A stretch of DNA of 38,258 nucleotides from a virus (Duplodnaviria > Caudoviricetes): the IMG/VR virus record IMGVR_UViG_3300030376_006133, positions 1 through 38,258 of that record. One strand, given 5' to 3'. Position 1 is the stretch's first letter. Each line of letters begins with the position of its first letter. The notes under the pieces were generated by a model. It had not been told where the DNA came from. It saw nothing but the letters and a program-made list of their open reading frames with translations, and ran no database searches. Both the position numbers and the translations under genes were made by a program. This document shows, one piece after another, positions 14,042-38,258 of this stretch.

Positions 14042-17000
14042 ATGATAGAAAACAAAAATTTTCAAAAAATATATGATGTTTTAAAGTCTCAATTTGATAT
14101 AGGTACATTAGAACAATTCAAAGAAAAAATGAACGACGCCAATAATAGAAGGCGCGTTTATGAAACGCTTGGTACAGCATATGACGTAGGCACATACGAA
14201 GAGTTCGAAAATAAAATAGGATTACAACAAGAAGAAACAAACGAAGCACCATACAGAAGATTCGAGTCAAATGATGTTGTAGACACACCTTTAGAAAAAG
14301 TAGAATATTATAATCCTTTTGAAAAAGAAGCGTATGAATTTAGTAAAACAATAAATAAAAACGTTTTTAAAACACCTACCATAACGCAAATCAAAAGACT
14401 AAAGGATGGTAACTTTTTAGAAAGAACTGACAACGAAGGAAACTTGATAAGAGAAAGTCATCGCATGGTTGCTGACATAGACCCTGTAAGTAAAAAACCT
14501 GTAGTGTTTCCTACACTGTATCCTAAAGTAGAAAGTCCTACAAATGACCCAGAAGATTGGATTTCTTTCGATGATAACGAAGAAGCTATACAGTATGCTA
14601 AAGATAACGATGAATTGTATTTTGGTTTAAATACATCTACAGGAGACATACCATTTAAAAATTTAAAAGAAGCGAATGAGTACGCTACTAACGGATACAA
14701 AAAATTACAAACATGGAAAGAGCATTATGATGGATTGTTAAATTACATGGAAAAAAATCCTAAAATAACCACAGAAATGCGTAAAGCTACCGAGCGTGGT
14801 ATTATAAGAAGACAGAAATTAAACGCAGTAAAAGAAGAAGCGTTAAAAAATTATAAAGAAGGTAATTTTGACAATACTATAGTCAAAGTAGGAGGGTTGT
14901 TAAAAGACGCTGTTGTTCATGATTTGTTTTTTAACTCTATAGGCTCTTTAGCTGCAGACATAGAAAATTTTATAGGTGGAACAGACAACATATATAGTTT
15001 TTTAGACAACGTAGCAGAAACAAAAGAACAAAAAGATTTAGTTAAATTTTATACAGAAGCATATAAAAGAAAAGGTGTTATACCAGACGCAGAAGTAGAA
15101 AAATTATTAAAAGACGGTATTTTAAATAACATAACAAACGGTATAGATGATGTTGTAAATAAAGGTGACTTTGGAACATTAACATTAGGTTTTAATGCGC
15201 TAGGCACACAAACATTAAGAGCTATACCAACGGCTGTAGCTATAATGTATACTGGCGGTAGAGTAGGTTCATCTAGATTTTTAAAAGGATTGAGTAGCTC
15301 AAATAGATTGCGTGCTGGTACACTAATATCTGCTACGCCATACGGTTATTCACACTCTGTATTAGATGAATACAGACAAGATAAAAACGTATCTGGTGGA
15401 GACAGGTTAGAAAGTTTTGCTAGGGGTTTGATAGAAGGGTTGACAGAAATAATGGGAGTTACAGCTAATAAAGCTTTTACTAAAACTATAACAAAAAAAC
15501 AAAGACAAGATTTAGTAGACGCATATTTAAAACCTATGAGGGTGAATGTAGGAAGAGCTGCAGGTGAAGAAGGTCTTGAAGAATACATAGCGTCTATAGG
15601 AAATGGTTTAGTAGACATAGTTGCAGACGGAGCAGACCCATTTAAAACATTACAAAAAAGACACAGAGAAGGTTTAGACCAATTTTTTGTTGGTGTAGGA
15701 GCAGGTACATTAATTTCTGGTGGAGCTAGATTATTGTCGAATAGAACTGATATGTTTGATAATCAAGATTTGATGCAAGAATTAGATTTTATTAATGATG
15801 CTATTAATGACGAGACATTATCAGAAACAAGCAAAAACAAATTAAGAGAAAGAAAGAAAAAAATAACTATAGATTACATAGACAGATTTTCAGAAAAATT
15901 AGTTGCTTTTAATAGCTTAGAACAAAAAGACATAGACAAAGGATTAGACAAAGCTGAAGAACTAAAAGACCTTATGGTGTACACGTCTGAACTAAATGAG
16001 ATAAAAAAAAGAACAGGCAAAAAATCATTTGACAAAACCATAAAAACTAACAACGAAAAAATTACACAGTTAAGAAAAGAAATAGACGAAATAACTTCTA
16101 AAGGCGCAGCTGCAAAAGTGCAAAAAACTATAGACGAAAAAACAGAAACACCAACGGTAGTCAACGAGCAAGTAGAAAAAGAAAAAGAAGTAGCAGAAAT
16201 ATCTTTTGACGCAAACACAGCTAATGAGGCTAGTGAGTATGTAAAGGAGACAGGGTTTGGTAATTTACTAGATGGTATATCTAATTTATTAAAAGCCACA
16301 AAAGAACTTACAGCTAAAGATTTACCTTTTAAAATAAACTTTTATAATTCTAATAAAAACTTTGCTAGTGTATCATCTAAAAAAGTTACAGAAAAAACAG
16401 CAGCTAAAATAGGTGGTAGATATGATGAAACAACAAACACTGCTCATATTAACTTAGAAGCCCTTAGAGATTTAGACCCAACACAGGCAAAGGTAACATT
16501 GTTGCATGAGGTTATACATCCTATAGTAGAAGAAGTTATAGCAGCCAATACAACTGGCTTGAAAACTATGGCAGAGTTTGCACTTAAAGACAAAGGAATC
16601 GCAGAGTTTGTAAAAGGTCTCAAGACAAAAAATCAAGAAACATTAGATAAAGAAGCCGTTACAGAATATCTCGCAAGAGTTGCGTCAGGTGATATACAAC
16701 CTACTCTCACTACTATTGAGAGTTTTAAACAATCTGTTATAAACGCGTTAGACTCTATAGGCATAAAACTCCCACAAAGTCTTGACTTTCAGATAGATAC
16801 GGAACAAGATTTTAAAAACTTTGCGTCTAGATTAGGAAATACTCTTAAGAGTGGGAGAGTCGTAAGAGCGGGCGTAAGAGTACCAGAAGGTCAGGAAAAA
16901 AAATCTGGTCCTGAGAGTATGCGAATTGCTACTGATGGTAATATAGAGTTTGAGGATGGTGGTAAAAAAGTAGAAAATTTTTTTGACGAAAAGCGTTTAG

Positions 17001-20000
17001 ATAAAACGCAAGAAGATGATAAGCTGCGTGATTTAACAAATAGTGAAGATTTTAAAAAATGGTTTGCGGGGTCTAAAATTACAGACAAAGATGGAAACCC
17101 ATTGGTTTTATATCACGGCTCAACTGCTGACTGGTATAAATACGACATAACAAAAGCTGGTAATACTGGACTGGATTACTTCGGTCCTGGGATTTACACT
17201 ACACCAGATACAAGAATAGCAAATATATTTGCAGGTGAAAGAGAAGGTGAGACTGGTGGTTCTGTATATCCTTTATATGTGTCTGTAAAAAATCCTATAA
17301 TAGTAGAATCTTCTAATACACCAGAAACTAAATTTACGGAAGAACAGATAGATTCTTTAATTACTAATTCACCTAATTTAGAAGCTACAATAGACAATCA
17401 AGTAGAGTTTGTCAATTTTATTAAAGATGCCATACAGCAAGAGTTTAATGAAGGCGCAAGAATGTCTAGAGAACAGCAAGCGATAAAAAACGATTTATTG
17501 CAAAACGCTAACAACATAAATGATATGTATAATGACTTGCAAAACACTGATAAAACAGACGCAGATTACAGCTCTGCAATGCAATCATATACACCAGATA
17601 TAATTAGTTTTTATCAAAATTTAAGCAACGCAACATTAGAAACTGGTTTACCAGAAATAGACAACATAGCTAATAATGCAGTAGAGTTTATGAAACGAAT
17701 AGATTTTGGGTTCTATAGATTACCTAGTAAATTAGAAAAAGACGTAGATGGTTCTTATACATTAAAACCATCAGTAAGTTTTGGTAAAAAAGAAAACACA
17801 GAATCTATAAAACGTTTTCATAAAGCATTAAATGATATAGGGTATGATGGTATACTAGCTGATGAAATACTCAAGTCTGACGGCACTGTAAAAGACTTTA
17901 GAGTTGTAGTAGCTTTTAGCCCTAATCAAATTAAATCTATATACAATACAGGTAAATTTAATTTAGCTTCTGATAATATATTAAACAGAGAACTTGCAAA
18001 ACCAACAGAACAAAAAGAAACTAAAAAAGAAGAAACACCAACTATAGTAACACAACCAGAGGAAGTAGATGAAATGTTTAGAATACTAACAGAAAAACAA
18101 ACTAAAGCTTTTTATCATAGGTCATTAAAATACAGAAAGAACGCTCCTGTAGTACCAGGTTCTTGGGCGTCTGCATTTAATATACAAAGAGGGTTAATAG
18201 AAAAATACGTCAGAAAAACAGCTGCAGTAAAGTTTGGGGAGTTTACAGAAGATATAGAAATACTTGCTAGATATAACTTGTACAAGTCTTCTAAAAAAAC
18301 TGCAGAAGATTTTCACAAAGCAGTAATGCCTTTAATAGAAAACACTGTACCGTCTATAGAAGATTTACAAATAGCAAAAAAACTTGCTGACGAATTAAAC
18401 AAAAGGTTTAATTCAGATAATGTGTTTATAAATGAAATAGGTACATATGTAAGTATGTTAGATTCTGATTTGTTAAAAGATATTAAAACAGATGAAGACA
18501 TTGTAGCCTTAGTAGAAGAAATACAAATGGAAGAACTGAACGAGGAAGAAAAGAAAAGAATAACTGCGCTTACAGATAATATTATAAAAAGAGGTAATGA
18601 CCTGCATAAAAAGAACGAAGAAAAACAACTAGACGCAAAATATGAATTAAAAGCTATAAAAAGTTTTATAGTGAGGCAAGCAGAAAAAATAATAAAAGCA
18701 AAAGCAAAAACAGAAGCGGCATTAAAAAAATATGTATTATCAGATAAAGACATAGAAACTATAGATAGAGCATTAGCGGGTTCTACTATGCCTGTAGAGG
18801 ATAAAGCTAAAGTTATAGGTAATCTAAAAACTAATAGAAAATTAATAGGTAATGTTGCTAAAAATCAAATAAGAAAATCAAACAACATACAAAAAATAAA
18901 CAGTCTTCTTAAAAAATCTAGAAAACAAATACTAGATTATTTACTCAATAGAAATAGTATATTAGGATTTAATGTAACGTCTAACGAAATAAATACTATA
19001 GATGATGCTTTACCTAAAAATGGTTTTAGTAAAACACACATACAGGTATTAGAAGATACTTTTGAAAATCATGAGATTGATAAACTTTTAAGCACATTAG
19101 AATCATTAGCTGATGGGTATATGTCTCCTGCTACATATAGTAGAATACTAAAAAAATTAGCAAACACAGTTAAAGCAATAGATTTTGTTAATAGTTTATC
19201 AGAACTAAAATTTTTAAAAGATGATTTAGGCAGGTTTATAAGAGACTCTAAAGCTAGAAGAGAGTATAGAGAAAAACCAAACTTAGGGTGGATTAGAGAA
19301 GCTGTAGATAAAAGAGCTGTAAAAAAAGAGCTAGAAAGCGTTATGTCAAACAGTGCTTTTCCTGTATTTGGTAAAATTAAAAACAAAGCTGTTATAAGAT
19401 TATTTAATATTATTAGATTGAATCAAGGTACTGCAGAAGGATACAAGAAAAAAATAAACATACAAAAAACTAACCTTGTTAAAAAAATTAAATTTTCTAC
19501 AGAGTTTGAAGGAGAAACATATACGATTAGAGATTTAAATATATTAGGTCACATGTATATGTTGCATAAACAGTTTTTAAATAATCCTAATTCAAGTAGA
19601 GTGCCAGAGTTGTATCAAAGCTTAATAAAAACAAGGCTTGAAGACAATGATGAAGATTCTAAACAAATAATGCGTGTTTGGAACAATTTTAAAAAAGAAA
19701 ACGCTAACGTACTTGACGTAGCAAAAGCAGATAAGCTATTTAAAAAATCTAATTTTGCTGATTACATAAAATTTGCAAGAAAAACTTTTGATGATTTACA
19801 AGACAAAGTAGCATATTTACAAAAATTTAGAATAAGAGATAAGATACAAATTTTTGCAGATTACGTGCCTGTCTTAAACACAAAGCAATCTGGTAATGAT
19901 GCGCTAGCTAAATCTTTTAATGCAATAATATCATCTGTTTTTAATCCTGCTGCAGTAACACCTGCAAAAACAACTATATCTAGACAAACATATAAAAACA

Positions 20001-21601
20001 ACGATGGGGATTTTACAACTCCACGTGGGGCTAAATCACATTTTGATTTAGATAAAGCTATAAGTTTTGCTGTACATGAAACTATAGATGATTATTATAT
20101 AAAAGAAGGGTTAAAAGATGTAGGTATGATTTTAAATATGGCTATTAAGTTAGGTGACACTAAAACAAGAGACATATTAAAATTGTTTGAAAATACTGTA
20201 AAACAAAAAGTAGAGAACAATTATAATTATGTTAGAGACAACTCAACAATAGAAAGGTCAATTGCTACACTTGCAAATAATTTAAGTTTAAGTTTACTAG
20301 CAAACGTTAGAAGATTAGTTGAAATAGGTGCAAACACAATTTTATTATTTGGTTCACAGGTAACAAATATGTCATTTACTAAAAGCGGTATAAATAGTAT
20401 GAGAGCGTCTTATGATATTGCCTATGAAGTATCTAAGGTTTTTGGTTCTGCTTTTAGAGAAAGATTTGTACGTGGTGGTTTGTCGTATTATGATTTAGAA
20501 AGAATAGGTCAATCTCCATTAGAAAAAACTATACGAGACAAATTTGCAGGCAGTGAGTTTTTAGCGCAAGGAATATTTGAGGCTAACAAAGTAACGAGCA
20601 ATGTGGTTGGATACGCTCAAGGATTAGTAAGATTACCAGATGTGTATTTGACACAGCTAGTTTGGGGTAAAGTATTTGAAAATGAATACAAAAACTTAAC
20701 AAATCAAGATTTTGATTTAAATAATTTAAAAGACAAAACTTGGATGCTGAACAATAGAGATAAAGTACTAGAAGCTATAAACAATGCAGACATAAACATA
20801 AGTAGAGTAATGCCAGCTGTAAAATTTGACCAAGATATACCTACAGGAAATAGAAAAGGTTTAAGCGCAACTATATTTAATTTATTTTCTACATTTAGAA
20901 AAACATTATCAAACACTTTTGTTAATTCTTGGAATAGCTTACTTGGACTAAAAGGCGGTGATTTGACTAAAAAAGAAGCAACCGCTATATTAACAGCAGG
21001 TGCAGGTTCTATTATGTTTTATAGCGTAGTTTCAGCGCAAGTTATGTCTGTTGTCGGTAGTTTATTTATGCAATGGATGGGCGCAGACGACGATGATGAA
21101 AAAAGAAAAGAAAAAGAAAGGGTTGCGTGGACTAATGGGTTAGTTGAAATAATACTATTTAATACAGCTATAGGTAAGTGGAACTCATTTGGTTACGCTG
21201 CAGCTAGTAGTTACTTAAGAAACATGGGAAGACAGTATGTTACACAAGAACCAGAATCTGCTAAAGAGCTGTTTGGTATTGCAAACAAAACTTATTTAAC
21301 AAATATGACTTACGCTCCGTCTTACGCAAGTACTATACATCCTATATTTCAGTATCCTTTTTCTGTTGCAGATGCCATAAAGGCTTACGAAAAAGCGTCA
21401 GACGAAGATAAAGATGTAGCTTTTACAAATGCAGTTTTGACATTAGGTCAAGGTATGGGTGTACCGCATTCATCTGATTTAAAAATATTAGTAGGTAGTT
21501 ACCTTAAAAACAATGCAGGTGTAGCAAAAAATTATAATTACGGTCCATACAAAAGAGACGTTAAGAAAAATAACAATAAAAGAAAAGTAAATAAAAGATG
21601 A
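14042..21601 (+). CDS. Large polyvalent virion protein with zincin-like metallopeptidase and ADP-ribosyltransferase-like (ART-PolyVal) domains
   Basis: 2519 aa; LLHEVIH..EAVTE near 16505; FKKWFAGSKITDKDGNPLVLYHGS..GPGIYTT..GYDGI..VAFSPNQIKS at about 17050-17960. Confidence 0.75.
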   Translation: MIENKNFQKIYDVLKSQFDIGTLEQFKEKMNDANNRRRVYETLGTAYDVGTYEEFENKIGLQQEETNEAPYRRFESNDVVDTPLEKVEYYNPFEKEAYEFSKTINKNVFKTPTITQIKRLKDGNFLERTDNEGNLIRESHRMVADIDPVSKKPVVFPTLYPKVESPTNDPEDWISFDDNEEAIQYAKDNDELYFGLNTSTGDIPFKNLKEANEYATNGYKKLQTWKEHYDGLLNYMEKNPKITTEMRKATERGIIRRQKLNAVKEEALKNYKEGNFDNTIVKVGGLLKDAVVHDLFFNSIGSLAADIENFIGGTDNIYSFLDNVAETKEQKDLVKFYTEAYKRKGVIPDAEVEKLLKDGILNNITNGIDDVVNKGDFGTLTLGFNALGTQTLRAIPTAVAIMYTGGRVGSSRFLKGLSSSNRLRAGTLISATPYGYSHSVLDEYRQDKNVSGGDRLESFARGLIEGLTEIMGVTANKAFTKTITKKQRQDLVDAYLKPMRVNVGRAAGEEGLEEYIASIGNGLVDIVADGADPFKTLQKRHREGLDQFFVGVGAGTLISGGARLLSNRTDMFDNQDLMQELDFINDAINDETLSETSKNKLRERKKKITIDYIDRFSEKLVAFNSLEQKDIDKGLDKAEELKDLMVYTSELNEIKKRTGKKSFDKTIKTNNEKITQLRKEIDEITSKGAAAKVQKTIDEKTETPTVVNEQVEKEKEVAEISFDANTANEASEYVKETGFGNLLDGISNLLKATKELTAKDLPFKINFYNSNKNFASVSSKKVTEKTAAKIGGRYDETTNTAHINLEALRDLDPTQAKVTLLHEVIHPIVEEVIAANTTGLKTMAEFALKDKGIAEFVKGLKTKNQETLDKEAVTEYLARVASGDIQPTLTTIESFKQSVINALDSIGIKLPQSLDFQIDTEQDFKNFASRLGNTLKSGRVVRAGVRVPEGQEKKSGPESMRIATDGNIEFEDGGKKVENFFDEKRLDKTQEDDKLRDLTNSEDFKKWFAGSKITDKDGNPLVLYHGSTADWYKYDITKAGNTGLDYFGPGIYTTPDTRIANIFAGEREGETGGSVYPLYVSVKNPIIVESSNTPETKFTEEQIDSLITNSPNLEATIDNQVEFVNFIKDAIQQEFNEGARMSREQQAIKNDLLQNANNINDMYNDLQNTDKTDADYSSAMQSYTPDIISFYQNLSNATLETGLPEIDNIANNAVEFMKRIDFGFYRLPSKLEKDVDGSYTLKPSVSFGKKENTESIKRFHKALNDIGYDGILADEILKSDGTVKDFRVVVAFSPNQIKSIYNTGKFNLASDNILNRELAKPTEQKETKKEETPTIVTQPEEVDEMFRILTEKQTKAFYHRSLKYRKNAPVVPGSWASAFNIQRGLIEKYVRKTAAVKFGEFTEDIEILARYNLYKSSKKTAEDFHKAVMPLIENTVPSIEDLQIAKKLADELNKRFNSDNVFINEIGTYVSMLDSDLLKDIKTDEDIVALVEEIQMEELNEEEKKRITALTDNIIKRGNDLHKKNEEKQLDAKYELKAIKSFIVRQAEKIIKAKAKTEAALKKYVLSDKDIETIDRALAGSTMPVEDKAKVIGNLKTNRKLIGNVAKNQIRKSNNIQKINSLLKKSRKQILDYLLNRNSILGFNVTSNEINTIDDALPKNGFSKTHIQVLEDTFENHEIDKLLSTLESLADGYMSPATYSRILKKLANTVKAIDFVNSLSELKFLKDDLGRFIRDSKARREYREKPNLGWIREAVDKRAVKKELESVMSNSAFPVFGKIKNKAVIRLFNIIRLNQGTAEGYKKKINIQKTNLVKKIKFSTEFEGETYTIRDLNILGHMYMLHKQFLNNPNSSRVPELYQSLIKTRLEDNDEDSKQIMRVWNNFKKENANVLDVAKADKLFKKSNFADYIKFARKTFDDLQDKVAYLQKFRIRDKIQIFADYVPVLNTKQSGNDALAKSFNAIISSVFNPAAVTPAKTTISRQTYKNNDGDFTTPRGAKSHFDLDKAISFAVHETIDDYYIKEGLKDVGMILNMAIKLGDTKTRDILKLFENTVKQKVENNYNYVRDNSTIERSIATLANNLSLSLLANVRRLVEIGANTILLFGSQVTNMSFTKSGINSMRASYDIAYEVSKVFGSAFRERFVRGGLSYYDLERIGQSPLEKTIRDKFAGSEFLAQGIFEANKVTSNVVGYAQGLVRLPDVYLTQLVWGKVFENEYKNLTNQDFDLNNLKDKTWMLNNRDKVLEAINNADINISRVMPAVKFDQDIPTGNRKGLSATIFNLFSTFRKTLSNTFVNSWNSLLGLKGGDLTKKEATAILTAGAGSIMFYSVVSAQVMSVVGSLFMQWMGADDDDEKRKEKERVAWTNGLVEIILFNTAIGKWNSFGYAAASSYLRNMGRQYVTQEPESAKELFGIANKTYLTNMTYAPSYASTIHPIFQYPFSVADAIKAYEKASDEDKDVAFTNAVLTLGQGMGVPHSSDLKILVGSYLKNNAGVAKNYNYGPYKRDVKKNNNKRKVNKR

Positions 21602-29951: not shown

Positions 29952-30075
29952 ATCTGTCGCTGTGTATTTTTTTTAATATTTCTTCTTGTTTCTTATTAGG
30001 ATAATGTACAAAATGCGAAGCTATACTATTGCCTCCAAACAAATCTGACCTAATACCGCCCCACATCTTGAACAT
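29929..30075 (-). CDS. Small hypothetical protein (48 aa, absent from ORF track)
   Basis: MFKMWGGIRSDLFGGNSIASHFVHYPNKKQEEILKKIHSDRYEKIYKT, downstream of a candidate promoter. Confidence 0.4.
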   Translation of the reverse strand: MFKMWGGIRSDLFGGNSIASHFVHYPNKKQEEILKKIHSDRYEKIYKT

Positions 30076-30119
30076 TTAAATAAACTAATAATAACACAAA
30101 TGAAAAAAACTTCATTAGT

Positions 30120-30127
30120 CAAAACTA
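30120..30127 (-). promoter_or_regulatory. Bacteroidota-type -7 element for the replication operon
   Basis: TAGTTTTG on the - strand just after the recombinase stop. Confidence 0.55.
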
Positions 30128-30143
30128 AGAAATAAAATTCATA

Positions 30144-31124
30144 TTAAAAAATTTTTTTCATGAAATCAGCGTGTTTCTGTCGCCTGTGCTTTTCATTGAC
30201 AGCTACATATGAGTTAAAAGCTACGCTGTTCTTTGAGTGACCGCTAAATGATTTAACTGTAGCCTCGTCTACACCGTTCATTAACATTTCAGATATAAAT
30301 GTGCTACGTACTTTATGTGGTCTAATAAAATCTTTTATGTCTATAACTTCATGCGACCTTGTTCCGTCTGCTGACACTTTATCTTTAACAACCTCGCCTT
30401 TTATATTAGTGCTGTTTACCCACTTTTTAAAAGCATAGTATAAAGAATTTCTATCGTGTCTTGGAAATATTTTTTTTGCTTGTTTTTTACTGTTAAAACT
30501 GTCGCTTTTATTTTGCACCACACGTGATGATAGTAAACGCGCAACCGTTCTAGTTATAGGTACTGTTATAGTAGCGCTGTTTGTTTTACTAGGACAATAA
30601 TGTATAGAGCTAGTAGTAAAATTATCTTCTGATATATTTTCTATGTCTTTAATTCTTGCGCCTGTGATACTTAACAATAAATATAACATAGCGCCGTCAT
30701 CATCTTTTGCCTCGTCTAGTGCTAGTTTATTTAATTTTTTGTATACGTCAGTAGGAATTGTCCTAACAGGGTTGTCTAACTCCACCATATTAAAATGCTT
30801 AAAAGAGCATTTAATACCACTTTCGTCTGCATACTTTAATACAGATTTTATATAACGCATATAGTTGACAGCTGACTTATTAGAAAAGCTAAGTAAATAT
30901 TTCTTAACAGCATCTGCGTAATGCACATATTTAAGTTCGTGCTTTGCATTTTTATTAATGTTGTATGTGCTTATTTTTAAGTCGCCTATATCATTTATCA
31001 TTTTAGCAACTTGATTGTGGTATCTTTTATAAGTTACCATTGTGTTTTCTGAACGCTTCAAAATCTTGTTTTGTGAATATTCATGTTCAGAATATTTTTT
31101 ACTCATTGTAAGTAATGTTTCCAT
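30144..31124 (-). CDS. Tyrosine recombinase/integrase
   Basis: TGARIKD (R), SKT (K), HKVR (HxxR), SGHS and NSY (Y). Confidence 0.85.
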   Translation of the reverse strand: METLLTMSKKYSEHEYSQNKILKRSENTMVTYKRYHNQVAKMINDIGDLKISTYNINKNAKHELKYVHYADAVKKYLLSFSNKSAVNYMRYIKSVLKYADESGIKCSFKHFNMVELDNPVRTIPTDVYKKLNKLALDEAKDDDGAMLYLLLSITGARIKDIENISEDNFTTSSIHYCPSKTNSATITVPITRTVARLLSSRVVQNKSDSFNSKKQAKKIFPRHDRNSLYYAFKKWVNSTNIKGEVVKDKVSADGTRSHEVIDIKDFIRPHKVRSTFISEMLMNGVDEATVKSFSGHSKNSVAFNSYVAVNEKHRRQKHADFMKKIF

Positions 31125-31144
31125 ATATCTAGTAGTTTATATAA

Positions 31145-31175
31145 CAAAATTAAAAGATTTTAATATGAAAACAAA
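31145..31175 (-). promoter_or_regulatory. Full Bacteroidota sigma70 promoter for the recombinase
   Basis: TTTG (31172-31175), 19-nt spacer, TAATTTTG (31145-31152). Confidence 0.75.
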
Positions 31176-31243
31176 GTAATAGGCTCAGTAGTTCCAATTC
31201 CTACGTTTCCCGTGCAGGACACACAATATACGTAAAATCTGTA

Positions 31244-31283
31244 CTCTTACGTATATAAGAGTATTGTAAGAGTATGCTCTTAC
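31244..31283. repeat. Array of four CTCTTAC boxes at 11-bp spacing
   Basis: Boxes start at 31244, 31255, 31266 and 31277 (orientation F,R,R,F; one has a single mismatch). Confidence 0.65.
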
Positions 31284-31360
31284 GGTATATTTACCCAGAA
31301 TACTCCAGCTCCTGACAAATTCCTGAAGCTCTTTCGTAACAAAACTTTTGCGGGTAATGT

Positions 31361-31368
31361 TAGTTTTG
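31361..31368 (+). promoter_or_regulatory. Bacteroidota-type -7 element for Hsp20
   Basis: TAGTTTTG upstream of ATG 31456. Confidence 0.5.
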
Positions 31369-31455
31369 GCATAAAAGTTGTAGTAGTAATAGTAGGGAAA
31401 CAAATGTTCCCGCCTTGTATAACGATAGACTTATAGCTATCATAAATTTTATATT

Positions 31456-31878
31456 ATGACTTTATTACAAAACAGAATGAACAGCGCTTTTGATATTTTA
31501 TTTAAAGACGCATGGGGAGAACTAACAAACGATTATGTTCCCGCATTAAATAGTAAAATCCATTATCCTATTGACATATACGAATATGAAGATGGTATGA
31601 AACTTGAAATAGCCTGTGTAGGACTAAACAAAAGTGACATAGACATTAACATAAACGGGGATGTTATTAGTATTTCATCAGACAAACAAAAGAAAGATGA
31701 CACCGCCTCTGCAATTTGGTACTGTAAAAACATTACTCGTCGAGGTTTTAAACATGAGTACAAAATATCTACGCGTTTTGATTTGTCAAAATCTAACGCC
31801 AACATGGATAAAGGTTTATTAATAATTGACATACCGTTTTCGGAAAACAAAAAACCAAAAACATTAACAATAGACTAA
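31456..31878 (+). CDS. Small heat-shock protein (Hsp20/alpha-crystallin family)
   Basis: YPIDIYE..LEIACVGLNKSDIDI..ITRRGF..ANMDKGLLIIDIP. Confidence 0.9.
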   Translation: MTLLQNRMNSAFDILFKDAWGELTNDYVPALNSKIHYPIDIYEYEDGMKLEIACVGLNKSDIDININGDVISISSDKQKKDDTASAIWYCKNITRRGFKHEYKISTRFDLSKSNANMDKGLLIIDIPFSENKKPKTLTID

Positions 31879-31911
31879 CCTTTTCCAAATACTTATCCTT
31901 ATCCTTAGACT

Positions 31912-32018
31912 TCAATGAGGGTCAATGAGGGTCAATGAGGGTCAATGAGGGTCAATTAGGGTTCTTTAGGGTTTCTTAGGGTTCTTTAGGGGTTCTTTAG
32001 GGTTTCTTAGGGTATGGG
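31912..32018. repeat. 10-bp tandem array with 11 G-tracts
   Basis: (TCAATGAGGG)x4, TCAATTAGGG, five TTCTTTAGGG/TTTCTTAGGG units, then TATGGG. Confidence 0.95.
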
Positions 32019-32044
32019 TAATTACAAATTTTTGTGATGATAGT

Positions 32045-32075
32045 AAAGAGCAATTATATAGTTGCTCTTTTTTTT
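32045..32075 (+). terminator. Intrinsic terminator for the Hsp20 transcript
   Basis: AAAGAGCAAT-TATATA-GTTGCTCTTT followed by a T run. Confidence 0.8.
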
Positions 32076-32128
32076 ATATTGATATTTCTCATCTGGTTCT
32101 GACTGGAGGTTGGGACTCATATCCTGAA

Positions 32129-32188
32129 CTCTTAGATATAATATACTACCTCTTACAAACTCTTACATTAGTGAGAGTATAGTAAGAG
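32129..32188. repeat. Second array of CTCTTAC boxes
   Basis: Boxes at 32129, 32150, 32160 (F) and 32171, 32182 (R); two have a single mismatch. Confidence 0.6.
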
Positions 32189-32382
32189 CGTAATAACTCC
32201 TCCTTCCTTCTCACTGCTGGTTAAAATCTCTCACCTGCTTAGATAAAATTTTTTATAATTTGTAAATTTTCCATAATGGCACAAATACAGGTATTTTGGC
32301 TAAAATTTTGTTATTTGCTTAAAAACGAACTCCATACATGCGCTCTAACAGACTATCTCAATGTAGTTGGTATGTTGGTATC

Positions 32383-32410
32383 AAAAAAAAAGGGAGCTTT
32401 TAAACTCCCC
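32383..32410 (-). terminator. Intrinsic terminator of the early operon
   Basis: GGGAGUUU-AA-AAGCUCCC followed by U9 on the - strand. Confidence 0.85.
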
Positions 32411-32427
32411 AAAATAATACACGTGCG
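32383..32427 (-). ncRNA. Candidate antisense small RNA (3'UTR-derived or from its own promoter)
   Basis: CACGUGUAUUAUUUU directly before the terminator, complementary to the early-gene leaders; TATCTTTA near-consensus -7 element just upstream. Confidence 0.45.
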
Positions 32428-32442
32428 TAAAGATACTAAAAA

Positions 32443-32643
32443 TTACGCATTTTTAATTGTTTTAAATTTATCTAATATCTCGTCTATCTCTTCAACCACA
32501 TCTTTCATCTCACGCCTTACATTAGATAAGTATTCTGTCTTGCCACTTTTATAATAATTAAACTTTACGTCTAGTGTTTCGTAGATTCTATCCATCATAA
32601 AATCTTTATGATTATAAGTTTCTTTATCAGATAAATATTTCAT
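32443..32643 (-). CDS. Hypothetical protein
   Basis: 66 aa; A-rich leader; last gene before the terminator. Confidence 0.65.
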   Translation of the reverse strand: MKYLSDKETYNHKDFMMDRIYETLDVKFNYYKSGKTEYLSNVRREMKDVVEEIDEILDKFKTIKNA

Positions 32644-32649
32644 AATAAT

Positions 32650-32805
32650 TTATTTAGTTAACAATTTATAATACAATATAGTCTTTTCTACTGATTCATC
32701 TATTTTGTGCCAAAGGTCTGATTCAGTATCATTTTGTGAAAATTCTATATACATTTTTATAACCTTACGGCTATCTTCTAAATACTTTAATTGTTTTTTA
32801 CTCAT
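32650..32805 (-). CDS. Small hypothetical protein (51 aa, absent from ORF track)
   Basis: MSKKQLKYLEDSRKVIKMYIEFSQNDTESDLWHKIDESVEKTILYYKLLTK fills the gap. Confidence 0.65.
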   Translation of the reverse strand: MSKKQLKYLEDSRKVIKMYIEFSQNDTESDLWHKIDESVEKTILYYKLLTK

Positions 32806-33061
32806 TGTTTTCCTCTTTATATATTGATTCGTCTCTTATCTTCTTAACTTCATCATTTATAATAAACGTAGCATCAATATGTTTTTTGAACATTTTAATT
32901 TTACCGCTATCCCTAACGTGTCCGACAATCATGGTCTTTAAATGCGTTATCTTGTCGTCATCATCGGGCTGTATATAGCCATCGCCTTTCAGCCCTTTCG
33001 TAAAATTATAAAAGGACTGAAACAATACAACGTCATACTCAAAATATATACTATTAGTCAT
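32798..33061 (-). CDS. Hypothetical protein
   Basis: 87 aa with overlapping operon structure; GDGYIQPDDD. Confidence 0.65.
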   Translation of the reverse strand: MTNSIYFEYDVVLFQSFYNFTKGLKGDGYIQPDDDDKITHLKTMIVGHVRDSGKIKMFKKHIDATFIINDEVKKIRDESIYKEENNE

Positions 33062-33299
33062 TGCTTTTCTTTTTTAAATTATAATCTTTAGCTAGAATAA
33101 ACATAGCATTAGCAATATCCTCTCTCATAGATTCAAAAGTATCTACTAATAATTCCATAGCCTCGTCATTACTACACTCATATAACTCCTTTACATTATT
33201 TATGTGCCATAATTCACATGTTTGCCATCCTTTATCCTCTAAAAACTTTTTAGCTTTCCACTCTTTATCAGTTATTACCATTACTAACCCCCTCTCCAT
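33054..33299 (-). CDS. Hypothetical protein
   Basis: 81 aa; true start may be 33281. Confidence 0.6.
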   Translation of the reverse strand: MERGLVMVITDKEWKAKKFLEDKGWQTCELWHINNVKELYECSNDEAMELLVDTFESMREDIANAMFILAKDYNLKKKSND

Positions 33300-33723
33300 C
33301 TTGTAACAATGTTTTGCCCGCTACAGATAACTTATTACTAGGTATCTTAAGAAACGTATAACCCTGTTTTTCTATCTCACTCTTTTGCCTTAGTTCTTCC
33401 TCTATCTTACCAAACTTTACTACACATTTTTTCAGAACGTAATACATATTTTTTCTGATAATGTAATAGTCGCCTTTGCTATTTGTTTTTTCTATAGTAT
33501 CGACAGCTAAAATCATTTCTTTAATAGCCTTAAACATAAAGTTATATTGATGTATATAATCATCAAACTTTAAGTCTTTCATGTCGCTTACTAATCTATT
33601 AGAATTAATTAGCGCATCGCGTTCCTCTTTTGGTAAAAACTGCGCAAGAAACTCAATCTCTTTCATTGGCTCTGCACAATCGCTTAATATCCATTTTGCG
33701 TACTGCTCTTTAAACCCCCCCAT
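33268..33723 (-). CDS. Hypothetical protein
   Basis: Start placed at Met10 of the track ORF, which overlaps the upstream small gene. Confidence 0.6.
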   Translation of the reverse strand: MGGFKEQYAKWILSDCAEPMKEIEFLAQFLPKEERDALINSNRLVSDMKDLKFDDYIHQYNFMFKAIKEMILAVDTIEKTNSKGDYYIIRKNMYYVLKKCVVKFGKIEEELRQKSEIEKQGYTFLKIPSNKLSVAGKTLLQDGEGVSNGNN

Positions 33724-33856
33724 TGTTACCCCCTTTCTTTTGTTTATCATACATCTTCTTGTAATCTTGCCCCCACGCTTTAAATAATTGTTCTAGTTGT
33801 TTAATGGACGCTTGCTCTCCTTGAGAGCCTGCGCCTTTTTTATTTGTTTTACTCAT
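33710..33856 (-). CDS. Small hypothetical protein (48 aa, absent from ORF track)
   Basis: MSKTNKKGAGSQGEQASIKQLEQLFKAWGQDYKKMYDKQKKGGNNGGV, starting 4 nt after the VWA gene stop. Confidence 0.6.
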   Translation of the reverse strand: MSKTNKKGAGSQGEQASIKQLEQLFKAWGQDYKKMYDKQKKGGNNGGV

Positions 33857-33860
33857 AGTT

Positions 33861-35939
33861 TTAATTGTTAATTAATAATCTTTGTATTCTTGTTCTAATT
33901 AGCCTAACAATATTGTTAGTCATTTGATTAAAATTTTTGAACTGCACCCAATCTTTGAACATCTCATTAGTTTTATATTTTGTTCCTATACCTATTTGCA
34001 TTGGTACAAAACCCATTGAAGATATTTTATCTACAGCCCACTTAGTTTCAGCGACAGCTTTTCCGCCCGCTTGATTTACCCATTTAGTATCATAGCTTAC
34101 GCATGGCAAACCATCAGACAAAACAATAAATAAACATTTGCTATCTGTGTGCTTTCGTACACGTTGCGCGCTGTCCATAATAGATACATAGTCAGCGTTA
34201 GCGCATCTACCTCTAATATTAGTTAGGCTAGCATCGTTGTTTATGTTATTCTCTTTATAGATATATAGGTTATCAGAAAACTTACTATCGAAACCGTATA
34301 TAAATAACTCTAAGTCATCTATAGTCTTAAGAGCCTCATTAAACATAATGGCTATCTTTTTAGCTATTTCGTACTTAGGCACATCATCTATCCAATCGTT
34401 CATGCTACCGCTCTCGTCTATTAATAAACAGATAGATAACTTTTCCTTTGTGCCGTCTGATTTTCTACTATACACAAACTCGTCTCCGATATAACCGTCA
34501 ACTAGTTTATCTAATTTACCGTTTCGCTGTGACTTCTTAATATCATTGTGTGCTGTCATCTGAACACGCAAAGCGTTAGATAATCTTTTGATATTAAACT
34601 TACAGTCTCTTTTAATCAAACCATATTCGTGATGGGATAAACCGTCTTCGTTAACTGTAGGAACTATCTCTTTACTCATAGAGGAACTAACAGTACCCGC
34701 GACACTATCGCGCCAATCAACGATATTGCTTTCTAAATCTTTGACTTGCTTATTACGTGTCGTTTCTGTAGATTTTTTAGCTACTTTCGTTTGTATTCCA
34801 ATAGGACTTGCCGAGCCTCTTTGCTTTTTAGCTGTAGAAGAACTTAAAATTCTGTTAATATCGCTAGCGTCATATTCGCCCCATCTTAAAGAACTTTTTA
34901 ATTGTTCTTTTAAATCATCTAGCTTTTCCCAATATTCGTCTTTTAACTTTTCAGCTTTTTCGTCTTTATATTTGCTAGGCTTATCCTCTATCTTCTTTAA
35001 TTTATCAAGTACGCTCTCTCTTTCTTCTTTTAATAATTCCTTGCAAATTTCGTCTACCTGTTCCCAGACACTTTTTGGAACTTGCCCGTTACCGTTGCTA
35101 CTCTTAATACTATTGAGAGTACTCTCAGATATACTCTTATTGTTCTGAGAGGTAAAATTATCCATGTGATACCTGGAAATTAAATCGTAGATTTTTTTAC
35201 CACGTATAGTCATTTGCTTATAAGACGTCGGGTAATCTTCTAAAATTTCTGTTACTTCTTCTAAGAATTTTCTATAGTCAATATTAGATTTAGCAAGCTT
35301 ATAATTCTTAACGCATTCTTCTAACACGTTTAATGTATCTTCAACGTGTTTTGGATACCTCACTAACAATAACACTAGGTTAATCATGTTACCTATAGTG
35401 TTATTTATAACATCATCATTTTCATTATCGGGTGTCTTGTATAGTTTATCGAAATAATAATTTTTGATACTAGCTAAACAGTCACTATATCCGACGTAGT
35501 CATCTACGATTTTGCGCTCGATTCTTTCGTCTTCTAAGATGTTTAATATGCTGTGATGTATATTATCTATAGACCTAACACTTTTGAAAGGCGTATACAT
35601 TACGTGTGCGCTTTCGTGCGTTACTTCGCCATAGACTACGTCTAGTTTTTCCGACGTCGTTAAATTTCTATCAGATAAAACCTTTGTAGCAACGTTAATA
35701 ATACGTCCGTCTGTAGAATTTTCTTCTTTAGTAAATACTAAAGAGGCTTTTTTATCTACGCCTAAGTTATTCATTCTAGCGCGACAAAGTTTATAAGCTT
35801 TGACGTCTAAATTGTTTTTGCTTACGTTTCGCGCAATGTATCCCGCGCCCGTCTGACCGCCAAAGTCTATAAGACCCGTACCGTTTTTGACGTAGGAGTT
35901 ATTTCTGTCGTTAAATAATCTATCTATATTAAAAGTCAT
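33861..35939 (-). CDS. VWA-domain protein (CobT/NorD-like) with N-terminal HExxH motif
   Basis: HESAH and NILEDERIE at the N-terminus; MIDAS LLIDESGSM; IVLSDGLP. Confidence 0.85.
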   Translation of the reverse strand: MTFNIDRLFNDRNNSYVKNGTGLIDFGGQTGAGYIARNVSKNNLDVKAYKLCRARMNNLGVDKKASLVFTKEENSTDGRIINVATKVLSDRNLTTSEKLDVVYGEVTHESAHVMYTPFKSVRSIDNIHHSILNILEDERIERKIVDDYVGYSDCLASIKNYYFDKLYKTPDNENDDVINNTIGNMINLVLLLVRYPKHVEDTLNVLEECVKNYKLAKSNIDYRKFLEEVTEILEDYPTSYKQMTIRGKKIYDLISRYHMDNFTSQNNKSISESTLNSIKSSNGNGQVPKSVWEQVDEICKELLKEERESVLDKLKKIEDKPSKYKDEKAEKLKDEYWEKLDDLKEQLKSSLRWGEYDASDINRILSSSTAKKQRGSASPIGIQTKVAKKSTETTRNKQVKDLESNIVDWRDSVAGTVSSSMSKEIVPTVNEDGLSHHEYGLIKRDCKFNIKRLSNALRVQMTAHNDIKKSQRNGKLDKLVDGYIGDEFVYSRKSDGTKEKLSICLLIDESGSMNDWIDDVPKYEIAKKIAIMFNEALKTIDDLELFIYGFDSKFSDNLYIYKENNINNDASLTNIRGRCANADYVSIMDSAQRVRKHTDSKCLFIVLSDGLPCVSYDTKWVNQAGGKAVAETKWAVDKISSMGFVPMQIGIGTKYKTNEMFKDWVQFKNFNQMTNNIVRLIRTRIQRLLINN

Positions 35940-35940
35940 C

Positions 35941-37071
35941 CTAGCCGAATTGTTTAATTAAATCTCTAATCTCGTCCTGTTCATCATCTTGGTATCCACT
36001 TATAATAGAATACTCAACAGCATCAAGAAAGCTTTCGCCACACGATATATAATCGCCCGCGTCTATTAACTCACGTAAAGAGGTAGCCCTGTTTAATGTT
36101 TCTTCCTTACATCTCTCACGTATCTTTTCAGCTATCTTAACTAACTTCTGAGCATCTTCGCTAGATATACCGCATCTTTTAACTAGTACGTCAGCCTCAA
36201 TTTTAGACGGTAGATAGTCAATCTGTACCTTAACAAAACGCTGTCTTAACGCTTCGTCTAGTGTCTTTGTTCCTGTATACTGATAGCCCTCATTTGCTGT
36301 AGCTATAATCATACATGAACTGTCAACTTTAGCGACGTTATCGCTGTCGCTCTCACTATATGGGTTAGTAAGTATCTTCCTATCGTCTAAGACGCTGAAT
36401 AAATGATTTCCCGTTTCCCTTGTCGCTCTCGTTATCTCGTCAAGTAATATAATACCGCCTCTTTGTATGTTATTATAAAAATGCGCTTTGTCAAAATAGC
36501 TAGAGCCATTTTTAATTCTATGTGAGCCAAACAGACCCGCCGTGGCGTCTGTAAATGCTGACATATCAAATATCTCAATATTAGATTTAATAGCCTCTGC
36601 AAACCTTTTGACTAATTCGGTTTTTCCTGTACCGCTTGCGCCTGTAAGTAAGACATTTTTACGTAAGACTAAAACGTCAATTATTAATCGTTTCCATGTT
36701 TTTGGCTCAACATAGAAACCATGCTTTTTAACTGTAGGCGCTTTGACTTTCTTAAATAAACTTTCAGAAAGTTTTTTTCTGTCTGTCTCATTGCCTGTTA
36801 AATAAGCTAAATTAAATTCGCCTTTGCTTTTTACTAGAGTTTTAATAATAGGCTTGTTTGTTTGCGTTGTCGTTGCCTGTTTTGGCGTCTCGTTTAATTC
36901 TACTTCGTAGCCGTTGCGTTTAAATCGCATTAGTGCTTCGTGTTTATTGAGCGAAGAGCCTTCCGCCATTAATTTGGTTTCAATTAGCGCCTTTCTCATT
37001 GATGGAAAAGTTATCTTTTCTTTTCCTTTTATGAGCGTTATTCCGCGCGCGTTCCAAGGTGTTGTTTTCAT
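35941..37071 (-). CDS. MoxR-family AAA+ ATPase (CobS/CbbQ/NorQ-like)
   Basis: GASGTGKT Walker A, ILLDEITR Walker B, IIATAN, LDEALRQRF and SLREL. Confidence 0.9.
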   Translation of the reverse strand: MKTTPWNARGITLIKGKEKITFPSMRKALIETKLMAEGSSLNKHEALMRFKRNGYEVELNETPKQATTTQTNKPIIKTLVKSKGEFNLAYLTGNETDRKKLSESLFKKVKAPTVKKHGFYVEPKTWKRLIIDVLVLRKNVLLTGASGTGKTELVKRFAEAIKSNIEIFDMSAFTDATAGLFGSHRIKNGSSYFDKAHFYNNIQRGGIILLDEITRATRETGNHLFSVLDDRKILTNPYSESDSDNVAKVDSSCMIIATANEGYQYTGTKTLDEALRQRFVKVQIDYLPSKIEADVLVKRCGISSEDAQKLVKIAEKIRERCKEETLNRATSLRELIDAGDYISCGESFLDAVEYSIISGYQDDEQDEIRDLIKQFG

Positions 37072-37096
37072 GTGTATTATTTTAATTCTAGTATAT

Positions 37097-37152
37097 GCTA
37101 GAGACTAGCGCCCGCGCGCTAGTTTCGATTAATAAAATCTCGTCAGTCTAGC
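37097..37152 (-). ncRNA. Hammerhead ribozyme, type I (HHR-1)
   Basis: GCUAGA-CUGACGA-GAUU(UUAUU)AAUC-GAAA-CUAGCGC(GCGG)GCGCUAG-UC^UCUAGC: intact core, three perfect stems, GUC site; predicted cut between 37103 and 37102. Confidence 0.95.
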
Positions 37153-37636
37153 TACGTTTTTTAATTGGTTTAAATTTTACCCTTGATTTACTCATTTTTT
37201 TAATACCAACTAAAGAACTTTCTTTGCTTGTGTAAAACATTCTATCAACTTTAGGTATAGAGAACGTGCGCTCGTTTTCCTTTGTTAATTCTTTAATTGT
37301 TTCCTCGTATTTACTTAAAGAAACCGACGCACCGCCAACAATTTTAACCTCGTTTTGAGGTTGTTTTATTATAGCTTCCATGTGTGCATGTTTAATAATT
37401 TGCGCGCCTGTCGGTCTTACTTGAGTCATCTGTTTAGCTGTTGAAACGCTGTATCTGTCTTCCGTTTCATACCAATTTTTTGTTTTATATGAGTAAATAA
37501 ATACGGGATAATAACCATATGATTTGACTACATATAATTTATTTGTGCCTATAATTTCTCCGCTTAAATTGTTCGCTTTAAATTCTGTTAATGTGTTAAC
37601 ATATTGAGAGGCGTTTTTATTACTTGTTTTTTTCAT
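37148..37636 (-). CDS. Hypothetical early phage protein
   Basis: 162 aa; YVVKSYGYYPVFIY..RYSVSTAKQ; flanked by two ribozymes. Confidence 0.75.
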   Translation of the reverse strand: MKKTSNKNASQYVNTLTEFKANNLSGEIIGTNKLYVVKSYGYYPVFIYSYKTKNWYETEDRYSVSTAKQMTQVRPTGAQIIKHAHMEAIIKQPQNEVKIVGGASVSLSKYEETIKELTKENERTFSIPKVDRMFYTSKESSLVGIKKMSKSRVKFKPIKKRS

Positions 37637-37660
37637 TGTGTATTATTTAATTTAAAAATT

Positions 37661-37717
37661 GCTTAAGACCTAGACAAAAAGCCTAGGTTTCGAATATTTA
37701 ATTCTCGTCAGTTAAGC
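37661..37717 (-). ncRNA. Hammerhead ribozyme, type I (HHR-2)
   Basis: GCUUAA-CUGACGA-GAAU(UAAAU)AUUC-GAAA-CCUAGGC(UUUUU)GUCUAGG-UC^UUAAGC: intact core, GUC site; predicted cut between 37667 and 37666. Confidence 0.95.
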
Positions 37718-38191
37718 TTTTTCAAGAATTATATTTGTCTCTGATTTCTTGCATAATAACCAAAGATGAAAAGCCAAAAATTTCCACCATTCATCGCATA
37801 AAAAATCATACATTGTCTCGCTCATGTTATCTTGAAATTTTTTATCAAGGTTAAGAATCTCGCAAAACTTTGGCACGATATCAGAATAATAAAAGTCAAC
37901 GCTAATGGCTAGACCTTGCAACCATTCCGCCATTATTGAAACTCTACAACCTTTAAACCTTTTAATATTATTTTCAAAACAGTATTCAGAATTAAAACGC
38001 TGTAAAATATAATTTAACTTTGAATCGTCACTTTTATAAGTATCATCTTCTAGACCTTGAATGGCGTCTTCTTGCTCTATACATTCAAGTAAATAAGCTT
38101 TGACGTTCTCTCTAATTTTAAGAGCGTTTTCATTGTCGTTATTGTAAAGGTTTAAAAATTGTCTGTAATCGTTTTTAATTGTGTTTGTCAT
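37712..38191 (-). CDS. Hypothetical early phage protein
   Basis: 159 aa; AEWLQGLA; carries the shared leader motif. Confidence 0.75.
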   Translation of the reverse strand: MTNTIKNDYRQFLNLYNNDNENALKIRENVKAYLLECIEQEDAIQGLEDDTYKSDDSKLNYILQRFNSEYCFENNIKRFKGCRVSIMAEWLQGLAISVDFYYSDIVPKFCEILNLDKKFQDNMSETMYDFLCDEWWKFLAFHLWLLCKKSETNIILEKA

Positions 38192-38258
38192 ATGTGTATT
38201 ATTTAAGACGCTTTCGCCTATGTTATTTAGTTGGGCGTTGGCGTCGGTGTTTGTGTTT

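Follow-up and report, generated by a model that had tools for sequence, protein, structure and literature searches.

An antisense copy of the early leader box at the 3' end of a phage early operon: a candidate trans-acting small RNA

Introduction

Why should the early operon of a phage carry, between its last stop codon and its terminator, an antisense copy of the leader box that stands in front of its own first genes? The question is raised by the complete 38,258-base record IMGVR_UViG_3300030376_006133 (Duplodnaviria; Caudoviricetes), the whole stretch of DNA that was analysed and that we call the window. An original prediction had read this copy as part of a small RNA, or 3' UTR fragment, that blocks translation of the ribozyme-released early messages. 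By the sequence comparisons presented here the antisense match is real and far beyond chance, and its interpretation is supported by comparison with related phages. In the following sections, we describe the phage and its early operon, delimit the anti-leader unit, weigh the match against chance and against its relatives, and discuss how such an RNA may work.

Genome and likely host of the phage

The window has a GC content of 32%, with structural and lysis genes on its plus strand and the replication genes, a tyrosine recombinase and the early operon on its minus strand. The phage is found in marine metagenomes, no RNA data set being among the 22 public runs listed, and the window represents a partial genome, as relatives reach 53–55 kb. 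The window lacks a terminase; that of the 98% relative L002 has its nearest matches in phages of Flavobacterium, Cellulophaga and Maribacter (31–33%). From this affinity, from the missing Shine-Dalgarno sequences of the leaders and from the early promoter TATCTTTG of three relatives (L002–L004), we infer a Flavobacteria-like host. No MoxR relative was found in GTDB genomes (0 of 202 pattern matches) and hence no integrated prophage was seen. IMG/VR was scanned with the MoxR protein, an exact 25-nt pattern, an alignment of the integrase and a downstream pattern of 17 nt, and none of these scans turned up a close relative, near-identical records having possibly been excluded. Contigs from four DNA runs, compared over 30000–38258, include the site, and one of them, spanning 32234–33246, is without a difference among the differences listed. 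The tyrosine recombinase or integrase (30144–31124, minus strand; domain and family matches) lies 1.3 kb downstream of the anti-leader unit. Elsewhere in the window, the virion region encodes a 2519-aa protein with an ART-PolyVal ADP-ribosyltransferase domain of the polyvalent-protein type (14042–21601, plus strand). Several chaperone-like functions are also present, namely Hsp20 (31456–31878, plus strand), a Cpn10-like gene (L002 6860–7435, minus strand, upstream of the window) and the MoxR-vWA pair.

The early operon, its leader boxes and its hammerhead motifs

The early operon is transcribed from the minus strand and begins with two genes whose function is unassigned: early gene 1 (37712–38191, 159 aa), which belongs to phrog_11100 by family match, and early gene 2 (37148–37636, 162 aa), defined as an ORF and by domain searches. 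Early gene 3 encodes a MoxR/CbbQ-type AAA+ ATPase (35941–37071; PF07728, PF08406) and is followed by a 692-aa partner gene (33861–35939) with a weak vWA match to PF13519 that lies below the cut-off (E 0.036). The last early ORF (32443–32643) has 66 aa and is 59% identical in the relatives L003 and L004. A 12-nt core, AAATAATACACA, recurs in the leaders of early genes 1 to 3 (starts 38191, 37636 and 37071), forming a box at 38193–38204 before gene 1, at 37637–37648 before gene 2 and at 37072–37083, positions -12 to -1, before MoxR. Box plus AUG occurs only twice in five Bacteroidota MAGs (18.8 Mb), so that it is not a general host start signal.

Type I hammerhead motifs precede the second and third genes on the minus strand, whereas gene 1 has none and its box is preceded by a hairpin. 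The motif before MoxR (37097–37152) has its predicted cut at 37103/37102, 31 nt 5' of the AUG, and that before gene 2 (37661–37717) at 37667/37666, 30 nt 5' of the AUG. Both motifs are complete, with the core CUGAnGA / GAAA / UH and stems I–III, stem I being open. Among seven family copies, 11 of the 17 stem pairs are changed on both sides and 99% of the cells are paired. The Rfam gathering score for hammerheads is not reached, the best score being 30.8 bits against 56.3 (RAGATH-1-hammerhead) for one of the two copies.

Some minor features of this region deserve mention. The stop codon of the upstream gene sits inside the 5' arm of stem I in each hammerhead (37148–37150 and 37712–37714, minus strand), and because of this position cleavage could be coupled to translation termination; a TAA just 5' of the hammerhead core is also present in many unrelated phage hammerheads. 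The 3' product of the MoxR hammerhead would open with a 5-bp hairpin (37102–37087, minus strand), which may shield the cut end of the MoxR leader, and similar 5' hairpins are found on leaders of L003 and of the further lineage G003. In L002, L003 and L004 alike, the +1 predicted for the early promoter coincides with the A of an AUG that shares the reading frame of gene 1 and lies 27–28 codons before the boxed AUG (L002 8898, L003 1516, L004 9092; upstream of window position 38258). Gene 1 may thus exist as a long version that is leaderless and as a short one begun at the boxed AUG, and a start at the upstream leaderless AUG would place the gene 1 box inside the reading frame. Strain contigs lack 37154–37286 and 37718–38182, beside the hammerheads, and the early genes vary among relatives; the early region acts as a set of exchangeable cassettes.

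The anti-leader unit after the last early gene

On the minus strand 32425–32411 reads CACGTGTATTATTTT, which complements the MoxR leader and its AUG (37083–37069) at 14 of 15 positions, and the window contains no other place within two mismatches of this 15-nt complement. This confirms the antisense copy claimed by the original prediction at the 3' end of the early operon, and our complement search likewise recovered its 11-nt complementarity to the other two leaders. Without interruption, the complementarity extends at most over 12 nt with the MoxR leader and over 11 nt with the leader at 37636. The anti-leader lies within the 33-nt zone that separates the last early ORF (32443–32643) and its stop codon from the terminator. 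Complement search, co-folding and covariation delimit its seed against the three leader boxes as 32411–32423 on the minus strand, the match first described having run to 32425. It is followed directly by the intrinsic terminator of the early operon (32383–32410, minus strand; scan and fold), with a stem at 32410–32391 and a U-tract to 32383, which would also form the 3' end of the predicted RNA. The terminator is kept, with altered stem sequence, in L003/L004 and G003.

Just upstream of the seed lies a promoter-like -7 box of the sigma-A type of Bacteroidota (32428–32435, minus strand), recognized from its sequence. It reads TATCTTTA, one base off consensus, and is thus the near-consensus element that had been noticed before; no clear -33 element accompanies it. 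The hairpin formerly placed beside the seed, a UGCGUAA/UUACGCA inverted repeat (32424–32449, minus strand), does fold. The last stop codon is contained in its 5' arm and the -7 box in its loop, and L003/L004 do not preserve its sequence; because of this overlap and lack of conservation it does not belong to the predicted RNA. By its position, it would be possible only in read-through mRNA and not in a promoter-started RNA. Rfam gave no match at gathering in the window and none over 32383–32445 at E up to 1.

Directly 3' of the terminator, a 93-nt non-coding block (32300–32392) is 84–86% identical in L003/L004, above the surrounding DNA, and has no Rfam gathering match; it is possibly an attachment site, an origin or a further RNA. 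Between Hsp20 and its terminator, 10-bp units that each end in GGG are repeated in tandem in two runs and are G-quadruplex-like (31902–32013, plus strand). Contigs of runs X5 and X6 skip 31888–32035, and the GGG repeats are absent in L003/L004.

Where the RNA would begin

In F. psychrophilum, the -7 box is placed at -12 to -5 (PMC9723704), and the start-site table of this species contains TATCTTTA 66 times versus 178 times for TATCTTTG (PMC9723704 supplement 3). Two TATCTTTA rows of the same table are both sigma-A and have the octamer at the -7 place (PMC9723704 supplement 3). The sigma-A box of Bacteroidota, TAnnTTTG at -12 to -5, is represented by the variant TATCTTTA in the window and by the consensus in L003/L004 and in the second of two units of G003; it is absent from the first. 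With the mapped -7 spacing, +1 is predicted at 32423 or 32422, which coincides with the first base complementary to all three leaders. The fold and this spacing together give a predicted small RNA of 40–41 nt (32383–32423, minus strand), made of a 13-nt single-stranded seed and the terminator. It would pair over 12 nt with the MoxR leader and over 11 nt with the other two, and the two pairs to the AUG would fall outside it. The idea of a terminator-ended small RNA or 3' UTR fragment of roughly 45 nt is supported as to the unit and is to be shortened as to its length, and the 15-nt match including the AUG is reduced to 11–12 nt within the RNA itself.

A -7 box stands 5' of three of the four units known in the window and its relatives (the window variant, the consensus of L003/L004 and that of G003 unit 2), which argues for a primary transcript rather than release by RNase E. 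We consider a start at a -7 promoter of its own, placed immediately after the last stop codon, likelier than processing, at slightly short of an even chance. Cleavage from the 3' UTR of the operon would come some way behind, as a possible and rather unlikely origin.

Chance expectation and target ranking

Besides the leaders themselves, the anti-leader is the only site with an 11-nt complement to all three leaders among 15,292 30-nt windows on both strands. The second-order Markov expectation is 0.05–0.13 such sites per strand, and 3e-5 to 8e-5 in the 33-nt zone between stop codon and terminator. When the predicted RNA was co-folded by partition function with 47 start regions of the window, the boxed leaders took the first three places, with MoxR at -13.0, gene 1 at -11.4 and gene 2 at -11.3 kcal/mol, and the next at -6.8; they were also on top at 20 C. 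None of 600 shuffles of the 13-nt seed bound the three window leaders equally well, and across the RNAs tested the shuffles as good as the real seed were 0/600, 2/600 and 0/400. One refuting condition attached to the original prediction, that matches of this quality be common in shuffled AT-rich sequence, is contradicted by these values. A first ranking by duplex and opening energy had placed the window leaders at 12, 13 and 16 of 82. It was replaced by partition-function co-folding; the low ranks arose because the method scored long duplexes that melt the terminator.

With -11 to -13 kcal/mol the predicted duplex is a short one, rich in A and U, and the folds show the seed partly folded back in L003 and G003. 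Once G-U pairs and bulges are admitted, another three 20-nt segments, at two sites (30104; 10988/10982), match or slightly beat the anti-leader in binding the leader cores (-12.1 to -11.5 vs -11.4). The first was rejected as a second anti-leader of the window, being intergenic, not kept in L003 and with no terminator seen after it; the site at 10988 lies opposite a late gene. Two late-gene starts of the window bind the L003 RNA at -11.9 and -10.2, which means that such scores occur by chance in about 2 of 47 starts.

Covariation in related phages

Four metagenome relatives were found (L001–L004), in addition to the further lineage G003. L001 is 99.8% identical to the window and adds nothing, and L002 ends before the site. 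L003 and L004 have identical RNAs, which leaves three independent lineages. The MoxR proteins of L003/L004 are 78–79% identical to that of the window. Their leader boxes read TAAACAC, and at the same place after the early genes they have a consensus -7 box TATATTTG and an anti-box that reads GTGTTTA, followed by a terminator whose stem differs. The extra bases found between box and AUG in their leaders are mirrored by a 5' extension of their seed. The L003 leaders rank 1–3 of 25 (-13.2, -11.8 and -10.8 kcal/mol; next -6.8). L003 is without gene 1 and has a different small gene. In L004 two leaders rank 1–2 of 22, and the MoxR leader, in which the box is lost, ranks 6 (-5.9).

G003 is a third lineage (terminase 72%) and has no MoxR; the same hammerhead is present and its leaders are of the AAACAC...AAACAATG type. 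One boxed early gene of G003 (L244 4776–5816, plus strand) is glutamine amidotransferase-like with a gamma-glutamyl cyclotransferase, where the window has MoxR-vWA. G003 holds two units. Unit 1 lies right behind the last early stop codon and has a complement that includes the AUG; boxed early leaders take six of the top seven places among 73 starts, and no -7 box is found in the surrounding 140 nt. Unit 2 lies after the replication operon, where a stop codon, a consensus -7 box, an anti-box and a terminator follow one another, and the top six of the 73 starts are boxed early leaders. Between the last early ORF of the window and that of G003 no similarity is detectable.

In a cross matrix every RNA prefers its own leaders. 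The near-exception is the L003/L004 RNA on one G003 leader at -11.3, since both share TAAACACA. Where single leaders deviate, as in gene 1 of L003/L004 and gene 1 of G003, G-U pairs are formed; such compatible deviations favour pairing at the level of RNA, a weak indication from few cases. Leader and anti-leader thus change together in relatives, in agreement with what had been anticipated for related phages. As judged from these sequences, the three lineages reject chance and are too few for a tree-based test.

Proposed mechanism

The seed, the terminator, the three boxes and the two hammerhead motifs are present in the sequence, and box and seed change together in three lineages. In the reading that we prefer, with a probability of roughly 70%, 32423–32383 would yield a trans-acting small RNA of about 40 nt that represses translation of the boxed early messages. 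The host sigma-A polymerase would transcribe the early operon, the hammerheads would cut the early RNA 30–31 nt before genes 2 and 3 and leave open leaders, and the small RNA would be made from its own -7 promoter or cut from the operon 3' UTR. Its 11–12 bp would cover positions -13 to -1, the A-rich initiation region. Flavobacterium does without Shine-Dalgarno sequences, and an A-rich region drives initiation. In F. johnsoniae, A at -3, -6, -12 and -13 promotes initiation (PMC6847099). As the stable RNA accumulates, early expression would be confined to a pulse.

Should the ribozymes be active, genes 1 and 2 come to lie on molecules other than that with the operon's 3' end and would be reachable only in trans, and the position of G003 unit 2 on another operon likewise suggests trans action. 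The "shut-off" and the "RNA-only feedback loop" of the original prediction are a possible outcome, and the form of the circuit would depend on the origin of the RNA. With its own sigma-A promoter the RNA would build up as soon as infection starts and would be a delayed feed-forward brake and not feedback, while processing from the 3' UTR would give feedback of the kind known for OppZ.

A wider reading, tentative and rather doubtful in our view, is a protein-free circuit of early genes in which hammerheads produce single-gene messages with a phage-specific leader tag, one tiny RNA switches the whole set off, and the seed of this RNA could also set the immunity or superinfection group. If this were true, any new gene cassette that gains the leader tag would join the circuit. 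The immunity role is entertained because the recombinase lies 1.3 kb away and no repressor-type domain was found among the 48 ORFs of the window and 11 upstream ORFs of L002; against these points stand the incompleteness of the genome and the failure to find an integrated copy.

Alternative explanations

The alternative that survives best, with a small probability, accepts the pairing and denies repression in trans: the 3' UTR would pair with its own 5' leader in cis, as a closed loop, or would stabilise or activate the ribozyme-cut 5' ends. Such pairing between 5' and 3' UTRs has a precedent in icaR. Every unit lies within a 3' UTR, G003 unit 1 is without a promoter box, and the best match of the window is the MoxR leader, with which the cut RNA bearing this 3' end would begin. 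Yet genes 1 and 2 retain the box though the hammerhead cuts would part them from the 3' end, and in L004 it is the MoxR leader that has lost its box while those of genes 1 and 2 are kept. Moreover, G003 unit 2 sits on another operon and still has the early leaders as its best matches, and the predicted duplex spans the initiation region.

Slighter still is the chance that the box serves as DNA, either as an operator or roadblock for a phage protein or as a joint for cassette shuffling, in which case orientation would be irrelevant and the covariation would reflect changed protein specificity. All leader copies are in sense orientation directly before start codons, and the four others are all antisense directly before a terminator; their deviations are G-U-compatible, and the boxes of genes 2 and 3 are distant from any promoter. 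In favour of a DNA role is the swapping of early genes between relatives at box boundaries (L003 without gene 1; the contig of run X6 skipping 37718–38182). The inverted repeat over the -7 box, operator-like as it is, is not conserved, and the lack of a repressor-type domain in the same 48 window and 11 upstream L002 ORFs also speaks against a protein site.

Very improbable is that the anti-box is an ordinary sense leader of a small ORF on the opposite strand. There GTG comes after the box in the window, for an ORF of 43 aa, and ATG does so in the two G003 units (21 and 37 aa), whereas L003/L004 have a stop and no start codon after it. The three ORFs are unrelated to one another, matching only within their own genome or a near-identical copy; a plus-strand -7 box is absent at 32070–32411, and the Hsp20 transcript terminates at 32045–32070. 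A mere chance match of a U-rich 3' UTR with A-rich leaders, for which one may quote the 32% GC and the two other window sites that bind equally with wobble and bulges, has a negligible probability beside the position-specific expectation of 3e-5 to 8e-5, the 0 of 600 shuffles of the same composition and the matched changes in two further lineages. Trans repression of the boxed early messages remains the preferred reading, and it is this reading that is compared with known systems below.

Comparison with known systems

OppZ and CarZ of Vibrio cholerae are autoregulatory small RNAs derived from 3' UTRs, OppZ being 52 nt long (PMC7398697, PMC9438474). As described there, a short RNA at the 3' end of an operon shares the operon terminator, pairs with start regions of the same operon and blocks translation; the window RNA is predicted to do the same. 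Of these traits, a location in the 3' UTR with the operon terminator and a complementarity to the start region of its own operon, predicted and covarying, are found here. The Vibrio RNAs are released by RNase E, need Hfq (shown for OppZ) and belong to a metabolic operon, according to the same accounts. In contrast, the present RNA would have at least three targets that carry the same box, some of them preceded by hammerhead motifs, and likely its own promoter, in a phage of an inferred host group without Shine-Dalgarno use. Small RNAs of the MicX type resemble it in that their promoter lies at the end of the last ORF and the terminator is shared (PMC9438474); their targets are described as other genes (PMC9438474), whereas here they would be the leaders of the parent operon.

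Among phages, the c4 antisense RNA of P1 immI is a phage RNA that silences its own operon post-transcriptionally (PMC8198154), and different alleles would give phage-specific control in both cases. It lies in the 5' portion of the c4-icd-ant operon and has an antirepressor under its control, and no hammerheads are described with it in the available text (PMC8198154). Unlike P1/P7 c4, the RNA described here has no Rfam C4 match, its putative targets are two unassigned genes and a MoxR ATPase, and none of the 48 window ORFs belongs to the ant, icd or repressor families. Clustered hammerheads of phages and prophages are likewise of type I, lie tens of bases before start codons and process polycistronic early RNA (PMC3088659, PMC6765202). 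The biological purpose of hammerheads in phage early genes is stated there to be an open question (PMC6765202). The available text of these sources describes no partner antisense RNA, the word "antisense" not occurring in that of PMC3088659, whereas here the leaders that would be released share a box with a covarying complement.

By analogy, the predicted RNA would be OppZ/CarZ-like and c4-like in its working, yet neither of the two. In the literature searched, which covers subscription journals thinly, we found no publication on an early circuit of ribozymes plus antisense RNA and no phage small RNA that governs a group of the phage's early genes by way of a leader common to them. The system would provide a very small testable case, with a 40-nt RNA, three targets and the natural allele pairs of three lineages as compensatory mutants. 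It would show antisense control in bacteria that do not use Shine-Dalgarno sequences, and it would offer an orthogonal repressor for Flavobacterium genetics, a value that derives from the rarity of the tag in host genomes.

Distribution in other phages

The coupling of box and anti-leader is confined to this clade as far as it is seen, having been found neither in the more distant relatives nor in the unrelated hammerhead loci examined. The MoxR-bearing lineage G001/G002 (MoxR about 35%) has an early terminator without an anti-leader. A unit after the replication operon of G001 (L249 5031–4959, minus strand; 73 nt, with consensus -7 box and terminator) has three early starts as its top 3 of 73 and was not counted as support, as the duplexes are broken and bulged. 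For a wider null, 79 terminator-proximal segments were taken and five rows of L003, L004 and L244 were removed to give 74; the window's own terminator was missed by the ORF filter, and the seeds of L003/L004 lie beyond the 28 nt taken. In none of the 74 segments from more distant relatives did three upstream same-strand starts come on top at -9 or below, the top hits per segment being none in 59, one in 13, two in 2 and three in 0.

Hammerheads before start codons are common among unrelated phage contigs, and a scan of 95 terminase-anchored loci (1.2 Mb), over about a third of the collection, gave one. For none of 54 hammerhead leaders from 44 unrelated phage loci does the DNA examined contain an 11-nt complement ahead of a terminator on the same strand. 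In one unrelated phage of 49% GC, a segment of about 82 nt (L035 6065–5984, minus strand) has a -10-like box and a terminator, and its CTCCCTTGG complements leaders with CCAAGGGAG, one of them behind a hammerhead. The three CCAAGGGAG leaders rank 5–7 of 35 in co-folding, which is only suggestive. The locus L150, from which the anti-leader is absent, carries on its minus strand, between early and replication genes (offsets of about 17610–17728 along the strand), a consensus -7 box and a 94-nt RNA without an Rfam match, in which the loops of two hairpins are mutually complementary and would form a kissing loop or pseudoknot.
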